DNA of 64,000 nt from contig OZ252299.1 of NCBI GenBank assembly GCA_965250285.1, forward strand, positions 192,001 through 256,000, read 5' to 3'. Each line of letters starts with the position of its first letter. Within the stretch, counting starts at the first letter, position 1. This document shows positions 49,094-63,587 of this stretch, in pieces. The DNA comes from Myxococcota bacterium. GTDB taxonomy: Bacteria; Myxococcota_A; UBA9160; UBA4427. The notes beneath the pieces were generated by a model. The model searched no databases. It saw only the letters and a program-made list of their open reading frames with translations, and was not told where the DNA came from. The position numbers were made by a program, and so were the translations under genes.

Positions 49094-50218
49094 TCAGTCC
49101 TGGATGAAGCCGTAGAGCCGACCCGCGGTCTCGCAGAAGATCTTGCGGCGCTTCTCGGCCGACACGCCCTGGGCCATCGAGTTGATCAGGTAGCGCGAGT
49201 GCGGCCAGTCGGTGATGTGGTGCGGAAAATCGCTGCACCACATCATCGAGTCGACACCGACCGCGTCGCAGTTCTGGATGCCGAACTGGTCGTTCACGAC
49301 GCCGACCTTGCAGTTGCGCTCGTAGTACTCGCTCGGGAGCATGCTGAGGTTGACCTCGCACCAGTACCGGTTGCGCTTGTAGCGGTCGTCGATCTCCTGC
49401 TTGAAGAACGGCACCCAGCCGGCGCCGACCTCGCCGCCCACGACCGTCAAGCCGGGATAGCGCTCGAACACCTCGTTGAAGATCAGCTCGGCGAAGAGCG
49501 TGGGCATGCGGCTCATGGTCGTCGCGAACATCACGAGCTGCGGTGCGCCGCCCTTCTTGGCGGCGACGCGCTTCGTCTGATGCGTGGGGGGCGTGAGGCC
49601 GATGTGCACGTGGATCGGCATCTGCAGCTCTTCGGCGACCGCCCAGAATGCATCGTCTTCGCGCGAGAGCAGCGCTTCGCCCGAGGGCCAGGTGCCGAGG
49701 CCGACGCCGACCGCACCGTTCGCCTTCGCCCGGCGGAGCTCGGTGACGCAGTCTTCGACGCCCGTGGCCGGCATCTGGTAGATCGCGCCGAGCTGCTCGG
49801 GACGGTGGTTCGTCCAGTCGGTGATGAAGTCGTTGTACGCGCGCATGCCGGCGTACGAGAACTCGGTGTCTTCGAGCTTCTGCTGGATGAAGTAGATCAT
49901 CGTGCGCTGGGGCGGGAAGAAGACCGCGGCATCGACGCCGTCCTGGGCCATCAGCTCGAGGCGCGCCTTCGGATCCATGATGCCCGGGTGCATGTCCTCG
50001 TAGCGGACACCCGTCCACTTGAGCGTGCGCGGCGTCTGATTCATTGCGGCCACGAGACCGAGCGACTCGACCGCGCCGCCGAGATTCCACGCGTCGCCGC
50101 CGTCCTCGTCCTTCACGAGCTTCGGCGCCTTCGCCTTGAACTTCGACGGGATGTACTTCTCCCACATGTCCGGGGGTTCGATGACGTGCTGGTCGCAGTC
50201 GATGATCCGGTAGTCCAT
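49094..50218 (-). CDS. Amidohydrolase family protein (amidohydro_2-like)
   Basis: IIDCDQHVIEPP, IHVHIG, VFERYPGL..V..E.GAGW, MWCSDFPH; AGGAG RBS. Confidence 0.92.
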   Translation of the reverse strand: MDYRIIDCDQHVIEPPDMWEKYIPSKFKAKAPKLVKDEDGGDAWNLGGAVESLGLVAAMNQTPRTLKWTGVRYEDMHPGIMDPKARLELMAQDGVDAAVFFPPQRTMIYFIQQKLEDTEFSYAGMRAYNDFITDWTNHRPEQLGAIYQMPATGVEDCVTELRRAKANGAVGVGLGTWPSGEALLSREDDAFWAVAEELQMPIHVHIGLTPPTHQTKRVAAKKGGAPQLVMFATTMSRMPTLFAELIFNEVFERYPGLTVVGGEVGAGWVPFFKQEIDDRYKRNRYWCEVNLSMLPSEYYERNCKVGVVNDQFGIQNCDAVGVDSMMWCSDFPHHITDWPHSRYLINSMAQGVSAEKRRKIFCETAGRLYGFIQD

Positions 50219-50353
50219 GTCGGGTTCTCCTGTGTGGTCGGGCCGACGAGGTGAGCGGCGGCTCGGGCGCAGCCGGGTGAGGAGCGGCGGGGGCGCGTGC
50301 GTGCCGAGCGCTGGATCGCTCTGCGTCCCCCTCGGAGCCCTCCGCAGCGCGAT

Positions 50354-50376
50354 TTGACGATTCGTCAATTCTAGCA
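50354..50376 (-). promoter_or_regulatory. Extended -10 element abutting a 7-1-7 palindromic operator
   Basis: TTGACGA-T-TCGTCAA at 50354-50368; minus strand TGcTAGAAT at 50376-50368. Confidence 0.6.
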
Positions 50377-50475
50377 CGGGCATCGGCGGAACGGGCGCTG
50401 AGCTGCATCTGGATCAGCGGAGGACACTTCAGCGCGTCGCCTGCGGGGCAGATGCCCTGCGGTATGCGGAGCGGA

Positions 50476-52650
50476 TCAAGCGGTCGGCGCGTCACTCGGC
50501 GTGACGCGCACCGGGACGCCGTTGAACACGGCGTTGCCCGTCACCGGCTCGATCTCGGCGTCGTCGGTCAACGCGTTGCAGCTCACCCCGGGTCGCTCGC
50601 TCGCCACCGAGAGCCGCATGCCGGGGCGGTCGTGGCCCCAGCCGTGGGGCACGCTCACGACGCCGGGCGTCAGGTCGTCGCGCAGCTCGAGCGTGGCTTC
50701 GAGGGCGCCGACGCGGCTCTCGACGCGCACGCGGTCGCCCTCGCCGAGGCCGCGCTGGGTGGCGTCGTCGGCGTGCATCCACACCGTGCAGCGGTCGCGC
50801 CCCTTCGCCGACATGCGCGTGTTGTGGAGCCAGCTGTTGTTCGTGCGCACGTCGCGGCGTCCGATGAGCCACAGAGAGTCGCCCGAGAGCCTGGGCGGTG
50901 GCTCTGCGGCGAGGCGGCGCAGCGCCTCGAGCATCGTCGGGTGCGCGAGATCGATCGTGCCCGCCGCTGTGTCGAGCACTTCGCGGCCCCGCGGCGCGAG
51001 CGGGCCGAGGTCGATGCCGTGAGGGGCGGCTTCGAGGTCGGCCAGGCGAAGCCCCTTGCGCCACGGGCGAAAGCCGTCGCCGTAGGGGCCGGCGCGCAGC
51101 GCGAGGTCGAGCACGCGCCGCGGTGTCGGCCAGGTGCGCAGCGCGCCGAGGAGCGGCGTGAGGGCGCGCCTTGGCCCCTGCGCCTTGCGGGCCGCGATGC
51201 GCCAGGCGAGCTCGATCAGGATCTCCCAGTCGTGCTTTGCTCCGGGTTCGGGTTCGATGACCGGCGGCGAGAAGCGCGCCGTGTTGCGCACCGCGAAGCC
51301 GTGAAAGAGCACCTCGTAGTTCTCGTGCTCGAGCGACCACGTCGGCGGCAGGATCAGATCGGCGTGGCGCGTGGTCTCGTTCAGATAGAAGTCGACCGAC
51401 ACCTGGTAGTCGAGCGAGGCGAGCGCGGCGTCGACGGCGTTCGAGTTGGGCGCCGAGAGCGCGGGGTTGCCCGCGATCGTGATGAGACCGCGCACCTGGC
51501 CTTCGCCGGGCGTCGTGATCTCCTCGGCGAAGCACGACATCGGCTGCTCGCCGTTGAACTCGGGGGCGCCTCGCACGCGGGTGCGCCACTCGCCGCGGCT
51601 CCCGAGCGCGCCGCGGGCCCGGGCGAGGCCGGGCAGGTCGACGGCCGGCTGCGGGAAGAGGGCGCCGCCTTCGTGGTCGAGGTTGCCCGTCACGATGTTG
51701 AGCACGTCGACCAGCCAGCTCGCGAGCGTGCCCTCGCGTTGGGTACAGGTGCCGATGCGGCCGTAGCAGACGGCACGTTCGGCCCCGGCGAATCGCCGGG
51801 CGAGGTCGCGGATGCTCGGAGCGTCGAGGTCGAGCGGTTCGGCGACCTGCTCGGGTGCGAACGGTTCGAGATGGCGCGCGAGTGCGTCGAGCCCCTGGGC
51901 GAACGCAGCCGCGCCCCGTGCTCGACCGAGGCCCTCGCTCAGCACCGTGTGGATCAGCGCGCCGAGCAGCAGCGCGTCGTGCCCGGGGGCGATCGCGATG
52001 TGCTGGTCGGCGATCTCGGCGGTCTCGCTGCGGCGCGGATCGACGACCACGAGCGTGCCGCCGCGTTCGCGCAAAGCCCGAGCCCGGCGCTTGAAGCCCG
52101 GCGCCGACATCAAGCTGCCGCCCGAGACCACCGGGTTCGCTCCGAGCATCAGCATGAAGTCGGTGCGATCGACGTCGGGGATCGGAATGCGCAGCCAGTT
52201 GCCGTAGAGGAAGAAGCTCGACGCATGCTTCGGGTTCTGGTCGAGCGAGCTCGCGCTGTAGCGGTTGCGCGTCGAGAGCGCCTGGAAGAGCGGCACCAGG
52301 TACATGACGATCCCGAACACGTGCGCACCCGGGTTGCCGAGATACGAAGCCACGGCGTCGTCACCGTACTCGAGCTGGATCTCGGCGAGCCGTGTCGCGG
52401 CCTCGTCGAGCGCTTCTTCCCAGTCGATCACCTGCCAGCCGCGATCGGTCCGCCGCATGGGGCGGGTCAGGCGGTCGGGGTCTTCCTGGATCTCCTTGAG
52501 CGCGATGGCCTTGGGACAGATGTGGCCCTGCGAGAGCGGATCTCGTTCGTCGGCCTCGATGCGCTCGACCCGGCCATCGCGCACCGTGATCTGCAGCCCG
52601 CACATGGCTTCGCAGAGATTGCAGGTCTTCGGGACGACTCGGGTGGGCAT
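50476..52650 (-). CDS. Molybdopterin (bis-MGD) oxidoreductase with N-terminal 4Fe-4S motif
   Basis: CNLCEAMCG...HICPK, DPDRL..P, VVDPRRSETA, DFYLNETT..ADLILP, NNSWLHN, PHGWG. Confidence 0.93.
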   Translation of the reverse strand: MPTRVVPKTCNLCEAMCGLQITVRDGRVERIEADERDPLSQGHICPKAIALKEIQEDPDRLTRPMRRTDRGWQVIDWEEALDEAATRLAEIQLEYGDDAVASYLGNPGAHVFGIVMYLVPLFQALSTRNRYSASSLDQNPKHASSFFLYGNWLRIPIPDVDRTDFMLMLGANPVVSGGSLMSAPGFKRRARALRERGGTLVVVDPRRSETAEIADQHIAIAPGHDALLLGALIHTVLSEGLGRARGAAAFAQGLDALARHLEPFAPEQVAEPLDLDAPSIRDLARRFAGAERAVCYGRIGTCTQREGTLASWLVDVLNIVTGNLDHEGGALFPQPAVDLPGLARARGALGSRGEWRTRVRGAPEFNGEQPMSCFAEEITTPGEGQVRGLITIAGNPALSAPNSNAVDAALASLDYQVSVDFYLNETTRHADLILPPTWSLEHENYEVLFHGFAVRNTARFSPPVIEPEPGAKHDWEILIELAWRIAARKAQGPRRALTPLLGALRTWPTPRRVLDLALRAGPYGDGFRPWRKGLRLADLEAAPHGIDLGPLAPRGREVLDTAAGTIDLAHPTMLEALRRLAAEPPPRLSGDSLWLIGRRDVRTNNSWLHNTRMSAKGRDRCTVWMHADDATQRGLGEGDRVRVESRVGALEATLELRDDLTPGVVSVPHGWGHDRPGMRLSVASERPGVSCNALTDDAEIEPVTGNAVFNGVPVRVTPSDAPTA

Positions 52651-55241: not shown

Positions 55242-55865
55242 TCAGCCGGGGCGCAGCTCGGCGGCGACCCAGTAGCGACCGGCGCCGTACTCGATGGTTG
55301 CGCCGGGCCGCCGCAGCAGCTCCGCGCCGAGTGGCGTCACGTGGAAGGACGCCAGCCAGCGCTCGAGCGCCCGGCGGAGGGTCGGCCAGAGCGTCGCGCC
55401 GTCGCCGAAGTCGCAGACGATGACTGCACCGCCCGGTGCGAGCTGGTCGAGGGCGTGGTCGATGGCCGTATCGGGTCGTTCGACCATCGAGAGGCAATAC
55501 GAGAACAGGACGCGATCGGGGGCGGCACCCAGCAGCGTGCGGTAGTCGGCGTTCTCGGCAAACCCGTCCATCAGCTGCACGCCGGGCAGGCGCTCGGCCG
55601 CGCGCTGCCGCATGACGCTGGACGGTTCGACGCCCCCGAATCGGGCTTCGGGCCGAAGGCCGCGGAGCACGTCGAGGTTGCGGCCCGTGCCGGGTCCGAT
55701 CTCGACGAGCCGCTCCCAGTCGGGATCGTCGGCGAGTCGACGCAGCGTCTCGTCGCGTCCGAGCAGGTAGTAGCGGCGCGTCACGTCGTAGATCGGCGCC
55801 GACCAGCCGTAGTAGCGGTCGAGGAACGCGCGCTGGGCCTCGAAGGCCTCACTCGCTGCGCTCAT
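55242..55865 (-). CDS. btaB: SAM-dependent N-methyltransferase of betaine lipid (DGTS) synthesis
   Basis: YY.W...IYDVTRRYYLLGRD, EIGPGTGRNL, FSYCLSM, CDFG, WLASFHV; overlaps btaA. Confidence 0.85.
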   Translation of the reverse strand: MSAASEAFEAQRAFLDRYYGWSAPIYDVTRRYYLLGRDETLRRLADDPDWERLVEIGPGTGRNLDVLRGLRPEARFGGVEPSSVMRQRAAERLPGVQLMDGFAENADYRTLLGAAPDRVLFSYCLSMVERPDTAIDHALDQLAPGGAVIVCDFGDGATLWPTLRRALERWLASFHVTPLGAELLRRPGATIEYGAGRYWVAAELRPG

Positions 55866-57010
55866 GCGTGGATCCGGTAGAAGTCGACGCGTCGGTACAG
55901 AGCGCTGCGATCGAGGTGGGTTGCCTCATCGCTCTCCGCGTCCATGCGAACGAGGTGGTCGCCGTAGCCGAGCGACTCCACCACGGGTTCCCGGGCGACC
56001 GAGCGCACGAGCATGACGCCGCCCTCGCGTCCGGTGCGCAGCACCTCGTCGAAGAGTCGCTTCTTCGTCGGCCCCGACATCCAGTCGGGGGCATCGCAGA
56101 AGCTGAAGTGACTCCAGGTGTTCGGGCCGGCCTCGCCGAGGACGTCGAACAGATTCCCGAGGTGGAAACGGGTCTCGGTCGGCGACTCGAGGCTGCGTTC
56201 GTGATGCGCTCGGCGGAGGTAGGGTGGTACCGCCTGCGGGTCTTCGTGGTTGAACGCGCCCGTCACGATGTACCAGGCGAACCAGTTGCGCGCGAGGTCG
56301 GTCTCGGCCAGCCGGTACATCGTCTTCTTGAACGCCGCCATCACGCTGTCGCCCGGATCGTCGAGCTCTTCGTCGAGATAGCGATCGCGCTGCTGACTGT
56401 TGACGCCGAGCGAGAAGTACTGGAGCGGCGAGCCCATGAACGCACGGAACCAGGGACGCTCGAGCACCGGCGCAATCCACTCATCGATCGCCTCGATCCG
56501 CTTGGCGAGGGGCAGCTCGACGACGCCACGGAACCACGCCGCGTCGACGCCACACTGGTCGCGGAAGAACGCGAGCATGCGCGCCGTCAGGCCGGTGCGA
56601 TAGAGCGATCGTTCGAAGAGGTCGTGATTGCGCTTCCAATGGCGCTGCATCCAGCGCGGAAGGCCGTCGGCGAGATCGCGCACGATCTTCTCAGGGGTCG
56701 GATGCCAGCCCCGGCCGAACAGATCGTAGAAGTCGCCGTACGAGCGCATTCGCCGGGCTGCGGTGGCCTTGAGCGCAGCCAGCGCGAGGTGGTGGCGATT
56801 GATGTCGACTGCGTCGATGCGTCGCGGGTGCGCGCCCAACATCCCCGCAACGCCGCAACCAGCGGCCGAGATGGCCAGCACGCTCGACTCCGTGTCGAGG
56901 CCCATGTGCCGCTCGTCGAGCTCGGCGTCCTCCCAGAGCATGTTGTAGACGAACACGTGCGCGAAGGTGTGCTGAAAGGCGCGGTCCTTCAGCTGCATGT
57001 CGAAGTTCAC
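55862..57010 (-). CDS. btaA: DUF3419 / SAM:diacylglycerol 3-amino-3-carboxypropyltransferase
   Basis: VYNMLWED...D, ISAAGC, AVDIN..HL.L..LK, NWFAW, PPYL, DAPDWM, DRSALY. Confidence 0.88.
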   Translation of the reverse strand: MNFDMQLKDRAFQHTFAHVFVYNMLWEDAELDERHMGLDTESSVLAISAAGCGVAGMLGAHPRRIDAVDINRHHLALAALKATAARRMRSYGDFYDLFGRGWHPTPEKIVRDLADGLPRWMQRHWKRNHDLFERSLYRTGLTARMLAFFRDQCGVDAAWFRGVVELPLAKRIEAIDEWIAPVLERPWFRAFMGSPLQYFSLGVNSQQRDRYLDEELDDPGDSVMAAFKKTMYRLAETDLARNWFAWYIVTGAFNHEDPQAVPPYLRRAHHERSLESPTETRFHLGNLFDVLGEAGPNTWSHFSFCDAPDWMSGPTKKRLFDEVLRTGREGGVMLVRSVAREPVVESLGYGDHLVRMDAESDEATHLDRSALYRRVDFYRIHA

Positions 57011-57017
57011 CTCGGCC

Positions 57018-57042
57018 GTCGGCGCGGCGGAGCGCCGTTTGA
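57018..57042 (-). promoter_or_regulatory. Possible sigma28 promoter (weaker match)
   Basis: Minus strand TCAAA-N14-GCCGAC just upstream of btaA. Confidence 0.35.
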
Positions 57043-57246
57043 GGTTCGGGCGGGCAGCCTGGGGGAGGCAGCGCGAGGGTACGCGATGGCAGCGGCCCCG
57101 AATCGCTGCGTGGCCGAGCCGCAGCGGACTTCACGCATTGTTGGTCGAGTCGCGACACGACCGCCACGGATCACGGCGTCGACACCGAGGTGTGCACCTT
57201 CGTCACAGGGAGGTCATCGGTTTCGCGCTCGAAGGCGCGCACGCGG

Positions 57247-59109
57247 TCAGCCGCCGTGGGGGATGGGGCGCGATGCGTTCGTCTCGGACGGGCGCGGGCC
57301 GCGCAGCTCCTGGCCCAGGTGCGTCAGGTACAAGGCGATGTGTGCGGGGACGACCCAGGGCCACGCCTCGCGAAATGGGGCATGTGCCTCGAGACCGAGC
57401 AGCCCGATGATCGAGCCGACGATCATCGGGTGCGGGATCGAGCCGTAGGGGAATCGGTCGATGCGCTTCGGCGTGACGCGGCCGAGCTCGGCGCCGAAGT
57501 AGGTGCGCTCGCTGCCGAGCCGCAGCGCCGCGAGGGCCGCGAGCCCGAAACCGAACGTGACCCCGACCACCGAGACCAGGCCGATGGGCGCCGTCTGCAG
57601 ATACAGGCAGGCCAGCGTCGCCATCGAGACGCACTTCCAGAAGATCGCGTTGCGTTTGAAGGCTCCGACCGAGACGCGCTCGGGCGCCTCGCCGATGGCT
57701 GACCACGTCGCGATGTAGAGCGCGTAGTGGATGAAGCTCACCGCCGCGACGAAGAGGGCCACCGAGCCCATGAGCATGCTTGCGGCTGCCGACAGCGCCA
57801 GCCATGTGAGGTTGCCCAGGCCGATATGGCGCGTGAGCCGTTCCCAGAGCCATGTCTGGATCAGAATCATGCGCGCCGTCCACCGCTCGACGAGCCGCGT
57901 CGGCGCGAGCGTCTCGACGAAGAGCTGCCGAGCCCGTCGGTCGTAGCGTGTCGTCCAATTGCCCAACAGCCGCGCCCATGCGTTCAGTGGGCGCCGATAC
58001 ACGAGGTAGTGCAGCTTCAGCGTGATGCGGGGCCCGCCCGTGTCGGATCCACGGTCGGGATCATCGACGATGCGCTCGATGTAGTGGGGGGCGCGATTGA
58101 AGTCGAAGGCGAGCGCTTCTCCCTGCGTCAGCGTGATCCCCGCGTCACGGGTTTCGCTCTCCTCACCGCTTTCGTCCAGCGGAAACCGCGTCCGGACGTT
58201 CCGGTTCGGCGTCAGCCCGACCAGACATCGGTAGACGCTCGCGCCCGGGAAGACCGACCACGGGCCATCGACGTGCGGCATGTAGAAGACCTGGTCGGAG
58301 CTCAGCTCGCCAGGAGGCGCGCTGACGTACACCTCGTTCATGTCGGGTAGCGGCTCGACGGCGGTGCCCGGGCCATGATGCTCGGTGAACATGGCTTCGA
58401 GCCGGGATGAGCGAGCGAGGGCGTCACAGGCTTCGCGGATCTCGTCGGGGAGGTCGTCGCACCACCAGTGCTGGGTGCTGCGGCCGTCACCGGCCCGCTC
58501 GGTCGACCACGCCGCGACGCGCGCAATGCGCGCCGTGTCGTCCACCTCGACGAAGCGGGTCTGGATCGACTGTCGCTTCGGCGCGAGCCAGCCGAGCAGC
58601 GATCCGCGCGTTCGCCCGGCCGCGGCCAGCACGAGCGGCAGCAGGTAGAACGTGTGCAGTGCGTACCGAGCCACCCAGCCGGGCTCGTGGCGGTAGCTCC
58701 GCTCGAACGTCGACTCGCCCGAGAGCGCATGCGCGGCGTCCTGTGCCAGGTACGCCACGACGACGAGTGCGGCTGCGAGCCACGGTGAGATCGGCCAGCT
58801 CGCGGCGATCGCCGTGAGCAAGGCGACGAGATAGAAGCTGCGGCGACCGGTTCGTGGAGGCAGGGTCCGCCGGAGGGCGAGGGCGTACGCACCACCGACG
58901 GCGACGGTCGCAGGCCAGAAGATCGCGCTCGGCAGTGCGAGGGCGCCGTACAGACCGAGCGGCGTGGTCGCGAGGTGGAGCGACACGTTGAGGCCCGTCG
59001 AGTGGAACGGCAGGAAGGCGTCCAGGAGCGCGCTGAAGCGCGCTTCGCGCTGCGCCTGCGCACTCGGTCGACGCGCCTCCGGCTCGGTCTCTACGGTGGT
59101 GCCCTGCAT
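57247..59109 (-). CDS. Membrane fusion protein: Mpo1/DUF962-like, HxD dioxygenase-like and PEMT/ICMT-like methyltransferase domains
   Basis: FH...NVSLHL..P and QDAAH..SGE (Mpo1-like); soluble middle with VFYMPHVDGP, DFNRAPHYI, RITLKLHY; C-terminal RTYFGAELG...FPYG.IPHPMIVG. Confidence 0.7.
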   Translation of the reverse strand: MQGTTVETEPEARRPSAQAQREARFSALLDAFLPFHSTGLNVSLHLATTPLGLYGALALPSAIFWPATVAVGGAYALALRRTLPPRTGRRSFYLVALLTAIAASWPISPWLAAALVVVAYLAQDAAHALSGESTFERSYRHEPGWVARYALHTFYLLPLVLAAAGRTRGSLLGWLAPKRQSIQTRFVEVDDTARIARVAAWSTERAGDGRSTQHWWCDDLPDEIREACDALARSSRLEAMFTEHHGPGTAVEPLPDMNEVYVSAPPGELSSDQVFYMPHVDGPWSVFPGASVYRCLVGLTPNRNVRTRFPLDESGEESETRDAGITLTQGEALAFDFNRAPHYIERIVDDPDRGSDTGGPRITLKLHYLVYRRPLNAWARLLGNWTTRYDRRARQLFVETLAPTRLVERWTARMILIQTWLWERLTRHIGLGNLTWLALSAAASMLMGSVALFVAAVSFIHYALYIATWSAIGEAPERVSVGAFKRNAIFWKCVSMATLACLYLQTAPIGLVSVVGVTFGFGLAALAALRLGSERTYFGAELGRVTPKRIDRFPYGSIPHPMIVGSIIGLLGLEAHAPFREAWPWVVPAHIALYLTHLGQELRGPRPSETNASRPIPHGG

Positions 59110-59359: not shown

Positions 59360-60775
59360 ATGTCGGAGCATCCCTCGAGCGCGTCGATTCGAGCACGGCT
59401 CTCGCATCCGATCATCGATGCCGACGGCCACGTGATCGAGTTCATGCCGGCCGTGCGCGATCACCTGATCGAGGTCGGGGGGCGGGCGCTCGCCGACGAG
59501 TTCGATGCGGTGCTGACGGCGCCGGCCCAACTCGCGGCGCTGCCCGAGGCCGAGCGCCGCGCCATGGGCCTCTTCAAGATGACGTGGTGGGCGTATCCGG
59601 CACGCAATGCCCTCGATCGCGCGACGGGCATGTTGCCGGCGTTGCTGTACGAGCGCCTCGACGAGCTCGCCCTCGACTTCGCGGTGCTGTATCCGACGGT
59701 GGGGCTGGCCGCGCTCAGCTTGACGAGTCAGACCGATCTGCGGCGCGCGGCCGTGCGTGCGTTCAATCGCTCGGCGGCCGAGATGTTCGAGCCGTATGCC
59801 GATCGGCTCACACCGGTCGCGATGATCCCGATGGTCGATCCGGGCGAGGCGATGGACGAGCTCGAGTACGCCGTCTTGGAGCTCGGGCTGAAGGCCGTGC
59901 TGCTGAACGGCCTCGTCTACCGACCGCTGGGGCCCGACCTGCCCGGCGGCGCGCGCTGGATCGACGCGTTCGGCGCCGAGAGCCCCTACGACTACGACCC
60001 GGTCTGGGCGAAATGCGTCGAGCTCGGCGTCGCGCCGACGTTCCACTCGAGCGCCATGGGCTGGGGCAGCCGCGTCTCGCAGCGCAGCTACGTGCAGAAC
60101 CACATCGGCAACTTCGCCCAGGCGGGCGAGGCGACGTGTCGCTCGCTGTTCATGCACGGCGTGCCGACGCGCTTCCCGGCGCTGCGCATGGCCTTTCTCG
60201 AGGGAGGTGCGGGCTGGGCGTGCAATCTGTACTCCGACCTCGTCGGACACCTCGAGAAGCGCGGGCCCGAGGGCGTCCGCGCCTACGACCCCGATGCGCT
60301 CGATCGCGATCTGGTCCGCCGACTGTTCGAGCAACACGGTGCACCGCGCTTCAAGAAGCACCTCGACGAGCTCGAGGCGGGCCTGGCGGTGCTCTCGCAG
60401 TCGGGGGATTACGCCGACGAATTCGCCGCGAGCGGCGTGCGATCGGCGGAGGACGTCCGCACGGTGTTCGAGCGCAACTTCCGGTTTGGCTGCGAGGCCG
60501 ACGACCCGATGAACGCCGTCGCATTCGACTCGCGCATCCAGCCGCTCGGTGCGCGCATTCGCGCGATCTTCAGCTCGGACATCGGTCACTGGGACGTGCC
60601 CGACATGGCGGGTGTGGTCGCCGAGGCGTGGGAACTCGTCGACGACGGGCTGCTCAGCGAAGACGACTTTCGCGCCTTCACGTTCGAGAACGCGGCGACC
60701 ATGTGGGCCGAGGCGAACCCGCGCTTCTTCGAGGGCACGTCGGTCGAAGCGCCGGTGGCCGCGCTCGCAGGTTAA
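59360..60775 (+). CDS. Amidohydrolase family protein
   Basis: [15 protein letters not shown]...ELG...[34 protein letters not shown]. Confidence 0.92.
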
Positions 60776-62697
60776 CCCGAGGGTTGGATCCAGATCGCCG
60801 AAGTCACCGCCCGCTCCTGGATCGACGTGGGCTCGGGTGCCTCGACGCCGAGCGTCTTCGCGTCGTACGTGCTGTATCGCGGCGTCGGGATCTCGATCAC
60901 GCGGGCGTAGTAGAGCGCGTGCTCGCCGGGGTCGTAGGTCGGGTCGATCCAAACCGCACTCAGCTCGGTGGCCCCGATGTCGTTCGTGTAGCTGGCTTCG
61001 GCGACGTCGACGGTGTTGCCGACGGGCGCGAGGGGGCCGTCGCCACTGCGCTCGAGCCGGTCGCCGGAAGCGGCCACGTCGAAGACCCGCTCGTGGCTTG
61101 CGCCGTCGGCGTCGACCCACGCCTTGATGATCTGCACGCGGTCGAGATGGGCGCCGATCGGGTCCTTGAGCGTCGAGACCACGAAGGTTGGCGCACCCGA
61201 GGCGCGGGCTTCGAGTGTCCCGCCCATGGGCACGCCGCTCGCGTAGGCGGCTTCGAGCCACGATCCGTCCTGCACGTCGGTCGGCAAATCCCAGCCCCCG
61301 AAGAAGCGCACCTGAATCCGCGGCCCGGATGTCGCGTACGTCTCCTTGCGGCGCATCGCGTCGAAGATCGAGTCGCGGGTGTTCTGCTCGGCCCACACGG
61401 CGATCAAGCCCGCCGCACCGTAGGCCGGCGTCGGCAGCGAATCCTTCGGCATCCACGTCGCGAGCCCGAGGCGCTGGGACGGCGTGCCGTCGAGTAAGGG
61501 CAGCTTGCCGTGGTGGTCGTCCTCTTCGACCGAGGAGCTCGCGTTGTGGCTGTCGCTGCTGGCGATCACGCCGAAGCGATACGGGTCGAAGCCCTCGCGG
61601 TGCGCCAGCTCGAGGCCCGTGCGCAGGGCGTCGCGCGCATAGCTGCCCTTCGGTTGGCTCGGCGGCGCGTCCTGGGTCATGACCGTGTCCATGAGCTCGA
61701 AGTCGGCGAACGCGTCTTCGGGGGAGAGGCTCGGGTGGGTCTCCGACGTGCCCTTGACCTGGAAGATCTCGACCAGGGGCTCGTTGCGCGTGCGCAGCTC
61801 GGCGTAGTCGGGCGAGAGCGGCTCGCCGGCGAACGTCGTGCCCTCGAACATCCGGCCGTCGCTCACGTTGCTGTTGTGCGGGATCGCGAGCACGCGCATC
61901 CCGGCCTCGCGCTGGGCGTCGAGGGTGCGCCAGAGATCCTCGGGGTTCTCCGAGTCGCGTGATGAGAACGGGCGCCCGGGCACGGCGTTCGAGCCGTAGA
62001 TCACATTGCGATGCAGGTTGCGCTCGTTCGGCATCGACGACCATTCGTAGCCGACGAACGTGGTGAAGCGGCCCGGGTCGTTGTGCCGGGCCGCCGCAGC
62101 GATGATCTCTTCCCACGCAGCCTGCGACACCTCGTCGAGCCCATCGAGCCCGAACGCCGCCTCGCGCGTCTCGCTGCTGCCCATCTGCGAGAGGATCGTG
62201 CTCAAGAAGACCCATGTCGTACGCGTGCGACTGCCCGACCGGATCGCGTCGCGTAGATCGCTCGCCTGGTCGGCGGCGTCGCCGGCGAGGTGGCGCGGCA
62301 CACCGAGGTACTCGGCGTGATCGGTGACGGCGCCGAAGTCGAGCGGTCGCTTGGCTCGAATCGGATAGCCGAGCGCGTGCTCGATCGTGCCGCCCTTCAT
62401 GAACGTATACGCGTCGTCGGGCAGCGCGCGCGTGCCCATCGTGAACGCGTCGTACGAGAAGGCCGTGTGGATGTGCAGGTCGCCCCAGAGCAGGTTGCGC
62501 GTCGGGTCGGTCGGCACGGCGGTGCGTTCGGGCGGCGGTGCGGCGGTGGCGGGATCGAAGGTCTCGTCGACCGTCGGATCCTCGAAGCCACCGCAGGCCA
62601 GCGTGGCGATGACCGCTCCGAGCGCGAGGACACGTCGCGCCCGCCGCGGGTGCGTGCGGGTCGAGCGCCGATGTACGGGGCAGACCGCCTCGCTCAT
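60772..62697 (-). CDS. DUF3604 (PHP-like metallohydrolase) lipoprotein
   Basis: TLAC lipobox, [64 protein letters not shown]. Confidence 0.92.
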
Positions 62698-63587
62698 GCG
62701 TTCAGCTTCGCGACCCGCTCGAGCAGCGGCTGAATCTGATCGGGCTTGCGGCAGAAGACGATCGGGAGCACCTCGACATGGGTGACACCGGCGTCGAGGG
62801 CCGCCTCGAGGCCGCCGAGGGTCGCTTCGAGATCGGGCCCCTTCAATCCCATGACGGGCGGCAGCTGGGCGCGCACCTGCAGCTCGGCCGGGTCGCGCCC
62901 CGCGGCCTCGAACGCCTTGCGCAGCGTCGCCACGCCGTCGGCGAGCTCGGCCGCGCTCTGCGAGATCGGGAGCCAGCCCGCGCCGTACTCGGCGATGCGC
63001 CGGGCGTTCAGCGGCGTCGGCGCGAAGCCGAACCACAGCGGAAGCGGGGTCTGTACGGGCGCCGGTCGCGAGTAGATGCCCTCGAAGCGCACGGTCTCGC
63101 CTTCGTAGCTCGCCGGCGCGTCGCGCCAGAGCGCCAGGCAGGCGCGCACCTGCTCTTCGAGCCGCTTGCCCCTGCGCTCGAAGGGCAGCATCGATGCCTC
63201 GTACTCTTCGCGCTGCCAGCCGGTCCCCAGCCCGAGGTCGAGCCGGCCTCCCGAGATGACGTCGAGTGTGGCCGCCTGCTTCGCGAGGAGCACGGGCGGG
63301 CGCAGCGGCGCGATCAACACGCTGGTCGAGAGACGAATGCGCTGTGTGGCCGCAGCAAAGGCCGAAAGCGCGACGACGGGTTCGTACCAGGGAGCGGGTG
63401 GCGGGAGCGGAAAGTCGCCGTAGGGGTAGCGGTCGGTGCGCTCGCCCATGACGACGTGATCGGTCATCACCATCTGGTCGATGCCGAGGCGGTCGGCCTC
63501 GGCGACGACTTCGATCACTCTCTTGAAGTCGCCGCCATAGAGGTTCTCGATGCCGAAGATGCCGATCGCGGTCTGAAAGGGCTGCAT
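62694..63587 (-). CDS. LLM-class (probably F420-dependent) oxidoreductase
   Basis: TDHVVMG...[33 protein letters not shown]. Confidence 0.92.

Follow-up and report, generated by a model that had tools for sequence, protein, structure and literature searches.

Upstream of a btaA-btaB gene pair in a Myxococcota bacterium lies a gene for a three-domain membrane protein, here called X, which we propose as a candidate enzyme for the formation of the betaine lipid DGTA. Judged from sequence, X would turn the phosphorus-free lipid DGTS, or partly methylated precursors of it, into the isomeric DGTA, with the new carbon likely derived from SAM rather than from CO2, and we put the probability of this reading at about one half. 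X can be linked strongly to betaine-lipid synthesis; DGTA as its product, and not some other derivative, is what we infer. The DNA analyzed (the window) is a stretch of 64,000 nucleotides from contig OZ252299.1, and the features discussed are collected in Table 1.

Among the lipids outside the plastid, DGTA is a major one in diatoms, brown algae and Ostreococcus, where it replaces phospholipid under phosphate shortage. In PMC10685587 it is assumed to form from DGTS by decarboxylation and recarboxylation, by an enzyme and mechanism described as unknown, which agrees with the first-pass annotation of this DNA, where the enzymes that turn DGTS into other betaine lipids such as DGTA were called not well defined. 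The literature covered assigns no gene to the conversion of DGTS to DGTA; a 2025 review by Salomon et al., outside that coverage, could name a candidate.

Table 1. Features of the X-btaA-btaB locus, with positions counted from the first letter of the window
Feature	Position	Strand	Basis or remark
Three-domain membrane protein X, 620 aa	57247..59109	-	candidate DGTS-converting enzyme; AlphaFold2 model
Mpo1/DUF962-like membrane domain of X, about aa 25-165	58615..59037	-	alignment and profile match
Fe(II)/2-oxoglutarate oxygenase-fold domain of X, about aa 170-393	57931..58602	-	fold and invariant residues
Membrane helices and PEMT-like methyltransferase domain of X, about aa 395-605	57295..57927	-	profile and motifs
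Pho-box-like direct repeat GTCAY-N6-GTCAY	57202..57217	+	gap upstream of btaA; putative function
btaA-type gene (DUF3419)	55862..57010	-	aminocarboxypropyl transfer to diacylglycerol by homology
btaB-type SAM-dependent N-methyltransferase	55242..55865	-	translationally coupled to btaA

All three genes share the minus strand and one orientation, with X preceding btaA, so the gene calls bear out the first-pass annotation, which had placed btaA-btaB co-oriented downstream of a fusion protein of roughly 620 residues; the reading frame, with its ATG at 59109 and its stop at 57247, encodes exactly 620. The start of btaA is GTG 57010 or ATG 56998, and the btaB start overlaps the btaA stop (ATGA). The identities suggested for the pair also fit the profile matches: the btaA product matches DUF3419 (PF11899) over profile positions 3-380 of 385 (193.2 bits against a cut-off of 28.2, E 1e-56), and the btaB product matches class I methyltransferases (Methyltransf_23, E 7.6e-13) and shares 29-34% identity with the gene that follows btaA at Planctomycete loci. 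BtaA moves the aminocarboxypropyl group of SAM onto diacylglycerol, as stated in PMC10685587. In its DUF3419 protein and class I methyltransferase, coupled here by an overlapping stop and start, the pair is like BtaA/BtaB of bacteria and the fused BTA1 of algae and fungi, whereas X is an additional three-domain enzyme, an optional add-on, and Planctomycete X loci also carry a PlcP-like metallophosphoesterase gene upstream.

X was modeled with AlphaFold2 at a mean pLDDT of 89.8 and a pTM of 0.87. No NCBIfam family matched it, and a sequence search of solved structures gave no meaningful match for the whole X family or for either membrane domain. A search of a plasmid collection returned no match, no RNA holders of the X locus were listed, and a profile search started from 40 diverse sequences returned 12 proteins, none of them new to the set.

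The N-terminal domain resembles yeast Mpo1/DUF962, a 2-hydroxy fatty acid alpha-oxidation dioxygenase, as the first reading of the sequence had proposed. The likeness lies in a weak but consistent match to the Mpo1-like profile (PF06127), found at E ≤ 1 in 47 of the 49 aligned N-terminal domains (best 1.4e-6), and in the His, Asn, Gln and Glu residues among those near-invariant in the alignment (F32, H36, N41, H45, Q123, H127, E132 and H152); H36, H45, H127 and H152 may be the counterparts of the catalytic Fe(II)-binding histidines of Mpo1. Unlike yeast Mpo1, X itself scores below the Pfam cut-off (E 0.0062, 17.1 bits against 24), its domain is fused to others, and it is proposed to act on a lipid head group instead of a free 2-hydroxy fatty acid. 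A search of the genome with the Mpo1-like profile gave no match at E ≤ 0.001.

For the middle domain, to which no Pfam or NCBIfam family matched, the predicted structure supports a double-stranded beta-helix 2-oxoglutarate (2OG) oxygenase fold with an HxD...H triad, in line with the Fe(II)/2OG-like domain noted at first pass. A fold search with residues 170-393 returned 2OG-type oxygenases as the listed Foldseek matches and as nearly all of the 50 VIA matches (best structural match with a Z score of 12.2, rmsd 4.7 and 190 aligned residues; Foldseek E 3e-4). The nearest folds, at Z 10-12, are a mixture of hydroxylases, epimerases and cyclases, and no single one stands out. The triad residues H279, D281 and H342 are present in 49/49 bacterial, 80/80 viral and 80/80 metagenomic rows and in all other aligned rows, and R361 and K365, which follow the distal His, are near-invariant candidates for the basic residue that binds the C5 carboxylate of 2OG. 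PhyH-like 2OG oxygenases (SnoN, AviO1, PrhA, OkaE and ColD) share the fold, the triad and the downstream Arg, but X is only 7-16% identical to them, has no solved relative by sequence, and carries the domain embedded between two membrane domains.

The C-terminal region, where a PEMT/ICMT-like motif had been remarked on, matches the PEMT profile (PF04191) in 32 of 33 full-length rows and contains the conserved motifs G532-x2-TYFGxELG, FPY-x2-PHPM-x2-G and a terminal QE; after human PEMT, the glycine-rich motif, PHPM and the terminal Glu presumably bind SAM. The profile match is shared with the PEMT/Opi3 and ICMT methyltransferases, but the score of X straddles the cut-off of 25 (22.6 bits in one search and 27.1 in another, with many relatives passing), and the domain is fused to two oxygenase-type domains. 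VIA analysis of the C-terminal model placed ICMT first (PDB ID: 5vg9, Z 6.7, rmsd 3.9, 115 aligned residues), tied with unrelated rows, and did not separate a methyltransferase from an ICMT-fold reductase; Foldseek gave no match for this model at E ≤ 0.001. For the brown-algal relative, one Atlas structural row is a PEMT cluster.

Gene neighborhoods tie X to betaine-lipid synthesis. Neighboring genes were tested by direct tblastn and HMM searches, the gene caller having missed genes in high-GC loci. Pooling bacterial genomes with X and counting each once gave 32, in which btaA and btaB are adjacent (20), present as adjacent remnants (2), represented by btaA elsewhere (8) or absent (2); a btaA match accompanies X in 29. 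Within the genome collection, btaA and btaB adjoin X at 13 of 23 loci and decayed remnants do so at 2 more, and 8 of the 10 genomes without adjacent btaA and btaB contain btaA (one a remnant); G006 and G068 contain X and gave no btaA match. The background frequency of btaA was 6/60 in relatives, 53/301 in a phylum sample and 153/201 in a Pirellulaceae sample; all four X holders in the phylum sample have btaA, and the 201 Pirellulaceae genomes hold 10 canonical X copies compared with the 153 that have btaA. Cultured bacteria with X include Stieleria bergensis and S. tagensis, in which the cluster is present, and Plesiocystis pacifica. Gene order varies (plcP-like/btaA/btaB/X, X/btaA/btaB, btaA/btaB/X, convergent, and convergent with a fused btaB-btaA in locus L147), and the X-linked btaA sequences fall in two clades that are about 25-30% identical. 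One protein of 1231 residues (P0117, two cluster members) joins X to DUF3419 (E 1.8e-52) and to a methyltransferase, all five domains in one chain. Homologs of X do co-occur with btaA, against the condition for refutation set at first pass, and this co-occurrence and the P0117 fusion support the earlier suggestion that X is a candidate betaine-lipid tailoring enzyme.

Eukaryotic relatives of X are present in algae (a brown alga, diatoms, prasinophytes and a pelagophyte, with Tetraselmis and Pyramimonas among those named), in choanoflagellates and in a chytrid, and Atlas clusters of the family are commonest in Bacillariophyta and Chlorophyta. No orthologue could be confirmed under the species names Ostreococcus tauri and Phaeodactylum tricornutum. 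Residues of all three domains are kept in bacteria and eukaryotes alike, and 93 of 182 classified sequences keep them together, most of the others being permuted, fragmentary or matches to a single domain. The X of giant viruses is shortened and at 75 of 80 viral loci consists of the oxygenase and membrane helices only, with no btaA or btaB near any of the 80; in another subfamily PEMT and oxygenase come without the Mpo1-like part, and at 4 of 4 loci it was not beside btaA. Together these forms suggest that the domains of X can work in other combinations.

In the route we favor for DGTA formation, BtaA and BtaB would make DGTS, and the Fe/2OG domain would oxidize its head group, linking one N-methyl carbon to C3 of the homoserine unit. 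An alpha-oxidation by the Mpo1-like domain would release the old carboxyl (C1) as CO2, and the PEMT-like domain would restore the trimethylammonium group with SAM. The moved carbon would end as CH2-N or as the new carboxyl, and the order of steps is not fixed. Because an N-methyl carbon would be moved and the PEMT-like domain would re-methylate, the new carbon of DGTA would come from SAM and not from CO2 fixation. Labeling work by Vogel and Eichenberger in 1992 reportedly found that DGTA formation removes C1 but retains C3/C4. Methylation of an enamine carbon followed by reduction and a triple oxidation was also considered and ranked lower, since it needs a reductase and none was seen in the loci.

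The DGTA reading is supported by the btaAB linkage and the P0117 fusion, by the occurrence of algal relatives in groups with DGTA records, by the residues kept in all three domains, and by the PhoD or PstS-like neighbors of three X loci that lack adjacent btaA. It is weakened by the choanoflagellate and chytrid holders, for which we know of no DGTA record, by the two genomes with X and no btaA match, and by the viral and PEMT-plus-oxygenase forms in other combinations. DGTA is on record for Phaeodactylum, Ostreococcus and brown algae, and PMC10685587 describes it as seen solely in marine organisms; the literature listing contains no report from Planctomycetes or Myxococcota, which also counts against the reading, and no searchable lipid data were found for bacteria with X. 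PMC7074452 gives DGTS for Pyramimonas and Mamiellales with isomers assigned by phylogeny, and was therefore weighed neither for nor against. For the chemistry there is a precedent in the 2OG oxygenase BBOX, which, according to PMC13257696, uses a trimethylammonium methyl of THP to form a C-C bond; this supports the DGTA reading, and is weakened by the substrate being an N-N drug and no natural amino-acid betaine.

More tentatively, the X family may be the missing DGTA synthase as a whole, a single membrane enzyme that remodels a lipid head group by decarboxylating it oxidatively, making a C-C bond with an N-methyl carbon and re-methylating, with the consequences that follow. If so, a question open since the 1992 labeling work would be closed, an unusual head-group rearrangement would be added to lipid enzymology, and the carbon of the textbook 'recarboxylation' would really be SAM-derived. 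In ocean metagenomes X would mark DGTA as a gene, DGTA would be no eukaryote-only biomarker, some Planctomycetes and Myxococcota making it, and the oxygenase half in giant viruses would serve to modify the betaine lipids of their hosts. The bacterial three-gene cluster is the simplest possible setting for testing DGTA formation.

It is also conceivable, if rather unlikely, that X tailors DGTS or a precursor to another product, such as DGCC, a betaine lipid with an added hydroxyl or a shortened chain, or a lipid not described so far. The btaAB linkage speaks equally for every reaction on betaine lipids, 2OG oxygenases most often hydroxylate, and both the mixed nearest folds and the lineages without a known DGTA record would suit such an activity. 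However, a simple hydroxylation needs one domain, whereas three are kept together in the 93 sequences above, and a methyltransferase beyond BtaB fits a reaction that uses up a methyl carbon; DGCC would need a choline unit, which the proposed chemistry does not obviously supply.

We regard as improbable that X is a phosphate-starvation gene acting on another lipid, through phosphatidylethanolamine N-methylation or ornithine lipid modification, and lies near btaAB via shared regulation only. UniRef automatically names X members phosphatidyl-N-methylethanolamine N-methyltransferase, but this name applies to no more than the final sixth of X, and we rejected it as a full description. At three X loci where btaA is not adjacent, the neighbor is PhoD (L008 and L010) or a PstS-like gene (L056), and at the locus described here a gap with a Pho-box-like site parts X from btaA; yet X is accompanied by a btaA match in 29 of the 32 genomes, among them 4 of 4 from the phylum sample, where the background is 53/301, and the P0117 fusion points to a shared substrate. 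A little less probable again is breakdown of DGTS by oxidative ether cleavage to diacylglycerol and alpha-oxidation of the freed head, as recycling when phosphate returns: hydroxylation beside the ether oxygen would cleave the ether, Mpo1, an Fe(II) dioxygenase, is catabolic (PMC9624242) and viruses retain the oxygenase part only, which would suit host-lipid breakdown, but the conserved PEMT-like domain would be superfluous for degradation, and the fact that in Planctomycetes X immediately follows a co-oriented plcP-like/btaA/btaB set, with the fusion to the synthase in P0117, implies activity concurrent with synthesis.

The gap between X and btaA measures 236 bp and, given its Pho-box-like repeat, btaA-btaB may be driven by a promoter of their own, apart from X. 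In its strict form the repeat occurs 20 times in the genome, this copy included, and is not enriched genome-wide (20 at spacing 6 compared with 23, 19, 66 and 74 at spacings 5, 8, 4 and 7). None lies upstream of X in this window, even with one mismatch allowed, or in the 13 other loci examined. Five motif regions were annotated: three have no phosphate-related gene, one has unannotated genes, and one is the gap between divergent phoU and pstS-family genes. When this genome was searched by tblastn with PhoD, PstS-like and PlcP-like sequences taken from other genomes, there was no match, although a profile search of it identified two PstS-like genes.

X, the 620-aa three-domain membrane protein, lies next to genes of the btaA and btaB type on the minus strand of the window (table below). 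The first-pass annotation had described btaA and btaB beside a fusion of about this size, and the arrangement is real, with DUF3419 and class I methyltransferase matches to the two neighbors. The btaB start overlaps the btaA stop. The flanking genes are unrelated, encoding a BON-domain protein and a TPR protein downstream and a divergent amidohydrolase upstream. The three-gene region is level in G+C with the remainder of the window, the genome is a single 6.25-Mb contig (95% complete), and the window's X clusters with Myxococcota-type sequences in the tree. The region is best described as a betaine-lipid locus that includes a three-domain enzyme not yet characterised.

Coordinates of the genes, repeats and related loci discussed in the text
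Feature	Coordinates	Strand	Remarks
X	57247-59109	minus	620 aa
btaA-type gene	55862-57010	minus	DUF3419 (BtaA family) match, 193 bits, cut-off 28
btaB-type gene	55242-55865	minus	class I methyltransferase match
GTCAY-N6-GTCAY	57202-57217		window copy
GTCAY-N6-GTCAY	G000:C1:1118170-1118224 (L239)		phoU/pstS gap
Amidohydro_2 genes, two	49094-50383, 59360-60775		look unrelated to betaine-lipid locus
Molybdopterin oxidoreductase	50476-52650		looks unrelated to betaine-lipid locus
Luciferase-like monooxygenase	62694-63587		looks unrelated to betaine-lipid locus
Decaying clusters	L021:6676-7935, L023:6895-9287		Planctomycete genomes
btaB-btaA single ORF	L147:1783-3654		metagenome
X beside PKS/PUFA-synthase-like cluster	L238:3093-19735		genome G002
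Permuted form	L137:4905-6611
Shortened viral relative	L066:4944-6140		example
PEMT-like/oxygenase subfamily	L050:6897-8282, L051:6394-7770, L235:7487-8876, L236:2279-3935

Across 185,579 scanned genomes, X turned up at 23 loci, and btaA and btaB adjoin it in 13. The order btaA, btaB, X in one direction is found in 11 of these, with a PlcP-like metallophosphoesterase in front of btaA in 10 of the 11; the remaining two loci have X in convergent orientation to the btaB/btaA pair. Ten loci have no intact btaA/btaB neighbors, and eight of those genomes contain DUF3419, one of them as the remnant in L021. Broken btaA/btaB or plcP/btaB remnants lie beside X in L021 and L023, two Planctomycete genomes in which the plcP/btaA/btaB/X cluster shows decay; the damage extends to X in L023, whereas L021 retains X at full length. 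Three loci without btaA neighbors adjoin a PhoD or PstS-like gene (31 neighbors at 9 loci scanned).

Among 60 relatives, full-length X was present in two and btaA in six, with one overlap (adjacent); the X genome without a btaA match is 81% complete. In a phylum sample of 301 genomes, btaA is present in 53, among them all four with an X-family match; the centre genome is one of these four, and another has a split form. Within 201 Pirellulaceae genomes there are 12 with X-family matches (10 canonical), each also with a btaA match, and intact btaA is next door to 8 of the 10 canonical copies. An Alphaproteobacteria-class sample (301 genomes) gave a match only in the centre genome plus one split form. 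btaA itself is very common in Pirellulaceae (153/201), suggesting that DGTS may be a widespread lipid there.

Pooled, 32 genomes carry the three-domain gene, 20 beside btaA and btaB, two beside remnants, eight with btaA elsewhere and two with none, each genome being counted once. Related genomes are not independent observations, and a single event may account for the Pirellulaceae cases, but the link recurs across at least five gene arrangements and two btaA clades only about 25-30% identical. A further protein, P0117 (1231 aa, two cluster members), is a single chain in which X is fused to DUF3419 (E 1.8e-52) and to a methyltransferase. This co-occurrence and fusion favor the first-pass proposal of a betaine-lipid tailoring enzyme, and we consider it very probable that the substrate of X is a betaine lipid. 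Among metagenome loci, btaA and/or btaB lie beside X in 4/80, and many of the remainder look eukaryotic. L147, one of these four, is on a 60% G+C contig; there one ORF encodes a btaB domain followed by a btaA domain, the order of BTA1, and is convergent with X. X of genome G002 has a large PKS/PUFA-synthase-like cluster as its neighbor and shares its contig with btaA, at a distance of about 16 kb. Two loci titled Enterobacteriaceae (L011, L017) have X and btaA that group with Myxococcota-type sequences, and the labels may be wrong.

A GTCAY-N6-GTCAY repeat lies inside the 236-bp gap between X and btaA, and a second copy occurs where phoU and a pstS-family gene diverge, in the short stretch separating them; that copy is on the strand opposite to pstS, as the window copy is to btaA. 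The repeat has 20 copies genome-wide, not enriched over control spacings, and no site of this type was found upstream of X in the window. The window copy likely marks phosphate control of btaA-btaB, and the repeat is possibly a Pho box form for this lineage.

The AlphaFold2 model of X, built on a 33-row alignment, is confident (pLDDT 89.8, pTM 0.87) and is helical at both ends, with a middle rich in beta structure. Residues 170-393 match Fe(II)/2-oxoglutarate (2OG) oxygenases in two structure searches, as the first-pass annotation had suspected: SnoN is the best of the listed Foldseek rows (E 3e-4), and nearly all of 50 VIA rows are 2OG oxygenases (best Z 12.2, rmsd 4.7, 190 aligned). No single enzyme stands out, so the fold tells the class of chemistry and not the substrate. 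His279, Asp281 and His342 are invariant across the aligned rows of all groups; Arg361 is kept in all 49 bacterial, all 80 metagenomic and all 80 viral rows and in 184 of the 187 others, the rows being redundant. The N-terminal part matches the Mpo1-like profile weakly but consistently (47/49 rows at E≤1, best 1.4e-6), with the window's own X below the cut-off, and keeps Phe32, His36, Asn41, His45, Gln123, His127, Glu132 and His152. The C-terminal part matches the PEMT profile in 32/33 rows, and ICMT ranks first in the structure search with its model (Z 6.7), tied with unrelated rows. X thus works like three enzyme types yet cleanly passes no family cut-off.

DGTS and DGTA are isomers, and the old carboxyl is reportedly lost in the conversion of DGTS to DGTA (Vogel and Eichenberger, 1992); if so, a new carbon must attach at C3, an unactivated position. 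X is a candidate to supply all three activities needed: the Mpo1-like domain would remove C1 by an alpha-oxidation-type reaction, the 2OG oxygenase domain would perform C-H activation and C-C bond formation, and the PEMT-like membrane methyltransferase would replace the methyl consumed, the new carbon coming from SAM, not CO2. We hold this specific chemistry to be less likely than not. We put the probability that DGTA is the product at about 0.5, so there is a reasonable chance that X is the DGTA synthase that has long been missing. Counting against DGTA, X holders include lineages for which we know of no DGTA record, no record of DGTA in these bacteria was found among the papers listed, X occurs without btaA in two genomes, and the domains can act in other combinations, as the viral and split forms demonstrate. 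DGTS and DGTA are hard to distinguish by mass and sometimes assigned by phylogeny (PMC7074452, PMC7407893), which weakens presence and absence records alike. Published work states that BtaA and BtaB suffice for DGTS (PMC10685587), that DGTA is assumed to form from it through loss and re-addition of a carboxyl group, by an enzyme and a mechanism yet to be identified (PMC10685587, PMC10057378), that Mpo1 is an Fe(II) dioxygenase (PMC9624242), and that BBOX, acting on the drug THP, makes a C-C bond with the carbon of a trimethylammonium methyl (PMC13257696), a precedent for the proposed oxygenase step. The only Phaeodactylum candidate found is a betaine-lipid-synthase-like gene (PMC5825098), and the literature found, mostly outside subscription journals, assigns no gene to the DGTS-to-DGTA step and describes no such architecture. 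The bacterial three-gene cluster is the easiest form of the candidate to test.

An exhaustive search for relatives found 655 representatives with a threshold of E≤0.001, falling to 144 with 1e-30. The order Mpo1-oxygenase-PEMT accounts for 93 of 182 classified sequences and the circular permutation oxygenase-PEMT-Mpo1 for seven (P0060, P0093, P0098, P0113, P0120, P0128, P0129). The permuted forms, to which L137 also belongs, make up a clade of their own and largely keep all three residue sets; one copy lies on a viral contig. Among 30 proteins looked up, the ones carrying an organism name came from Discosporangium mesarthrocarpum, Monosiga brevicollis, Salpingoeca urceolata, Pelagomonas calceolata and Globomyces pollinis-pini; further holders are Thalassiosira oceanica, Pyramimonas, Tetraselmis, Prorocentrum minimum and Convolutriloba macropyga, the last perhaps through its algal symbiont. 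No sequence was linked by name to Ostreococcus tauri or Phaeodactylum tricornutum. Bacillariophyta and Chlorophyta account for the most Atlas clusters, and Nucleocytoviricota contribute others. Giant-virus-type contigs widely carry a shortened relative without Mpo1-like or PEMT motifs. From 103 confirmed viral stretches 80 were kept (L064-L141); 75/80 loci are reduced to the oxygenase plus some membrane helices, the metal triad is intact in 80/80 rows, and btaA/btaB were not found in the contig DNA around any of the 80. The shortened form is possibly a lipid-modifying gene. A more distant subfamily (four loci, away from btaA) lacks the Mpo1-like part and combines a PEMT-like part with an oxygenase part bearing the motif HY/HDGNLRF, the two being encoded by neighboring genes or by one fused gene with the order reversed.
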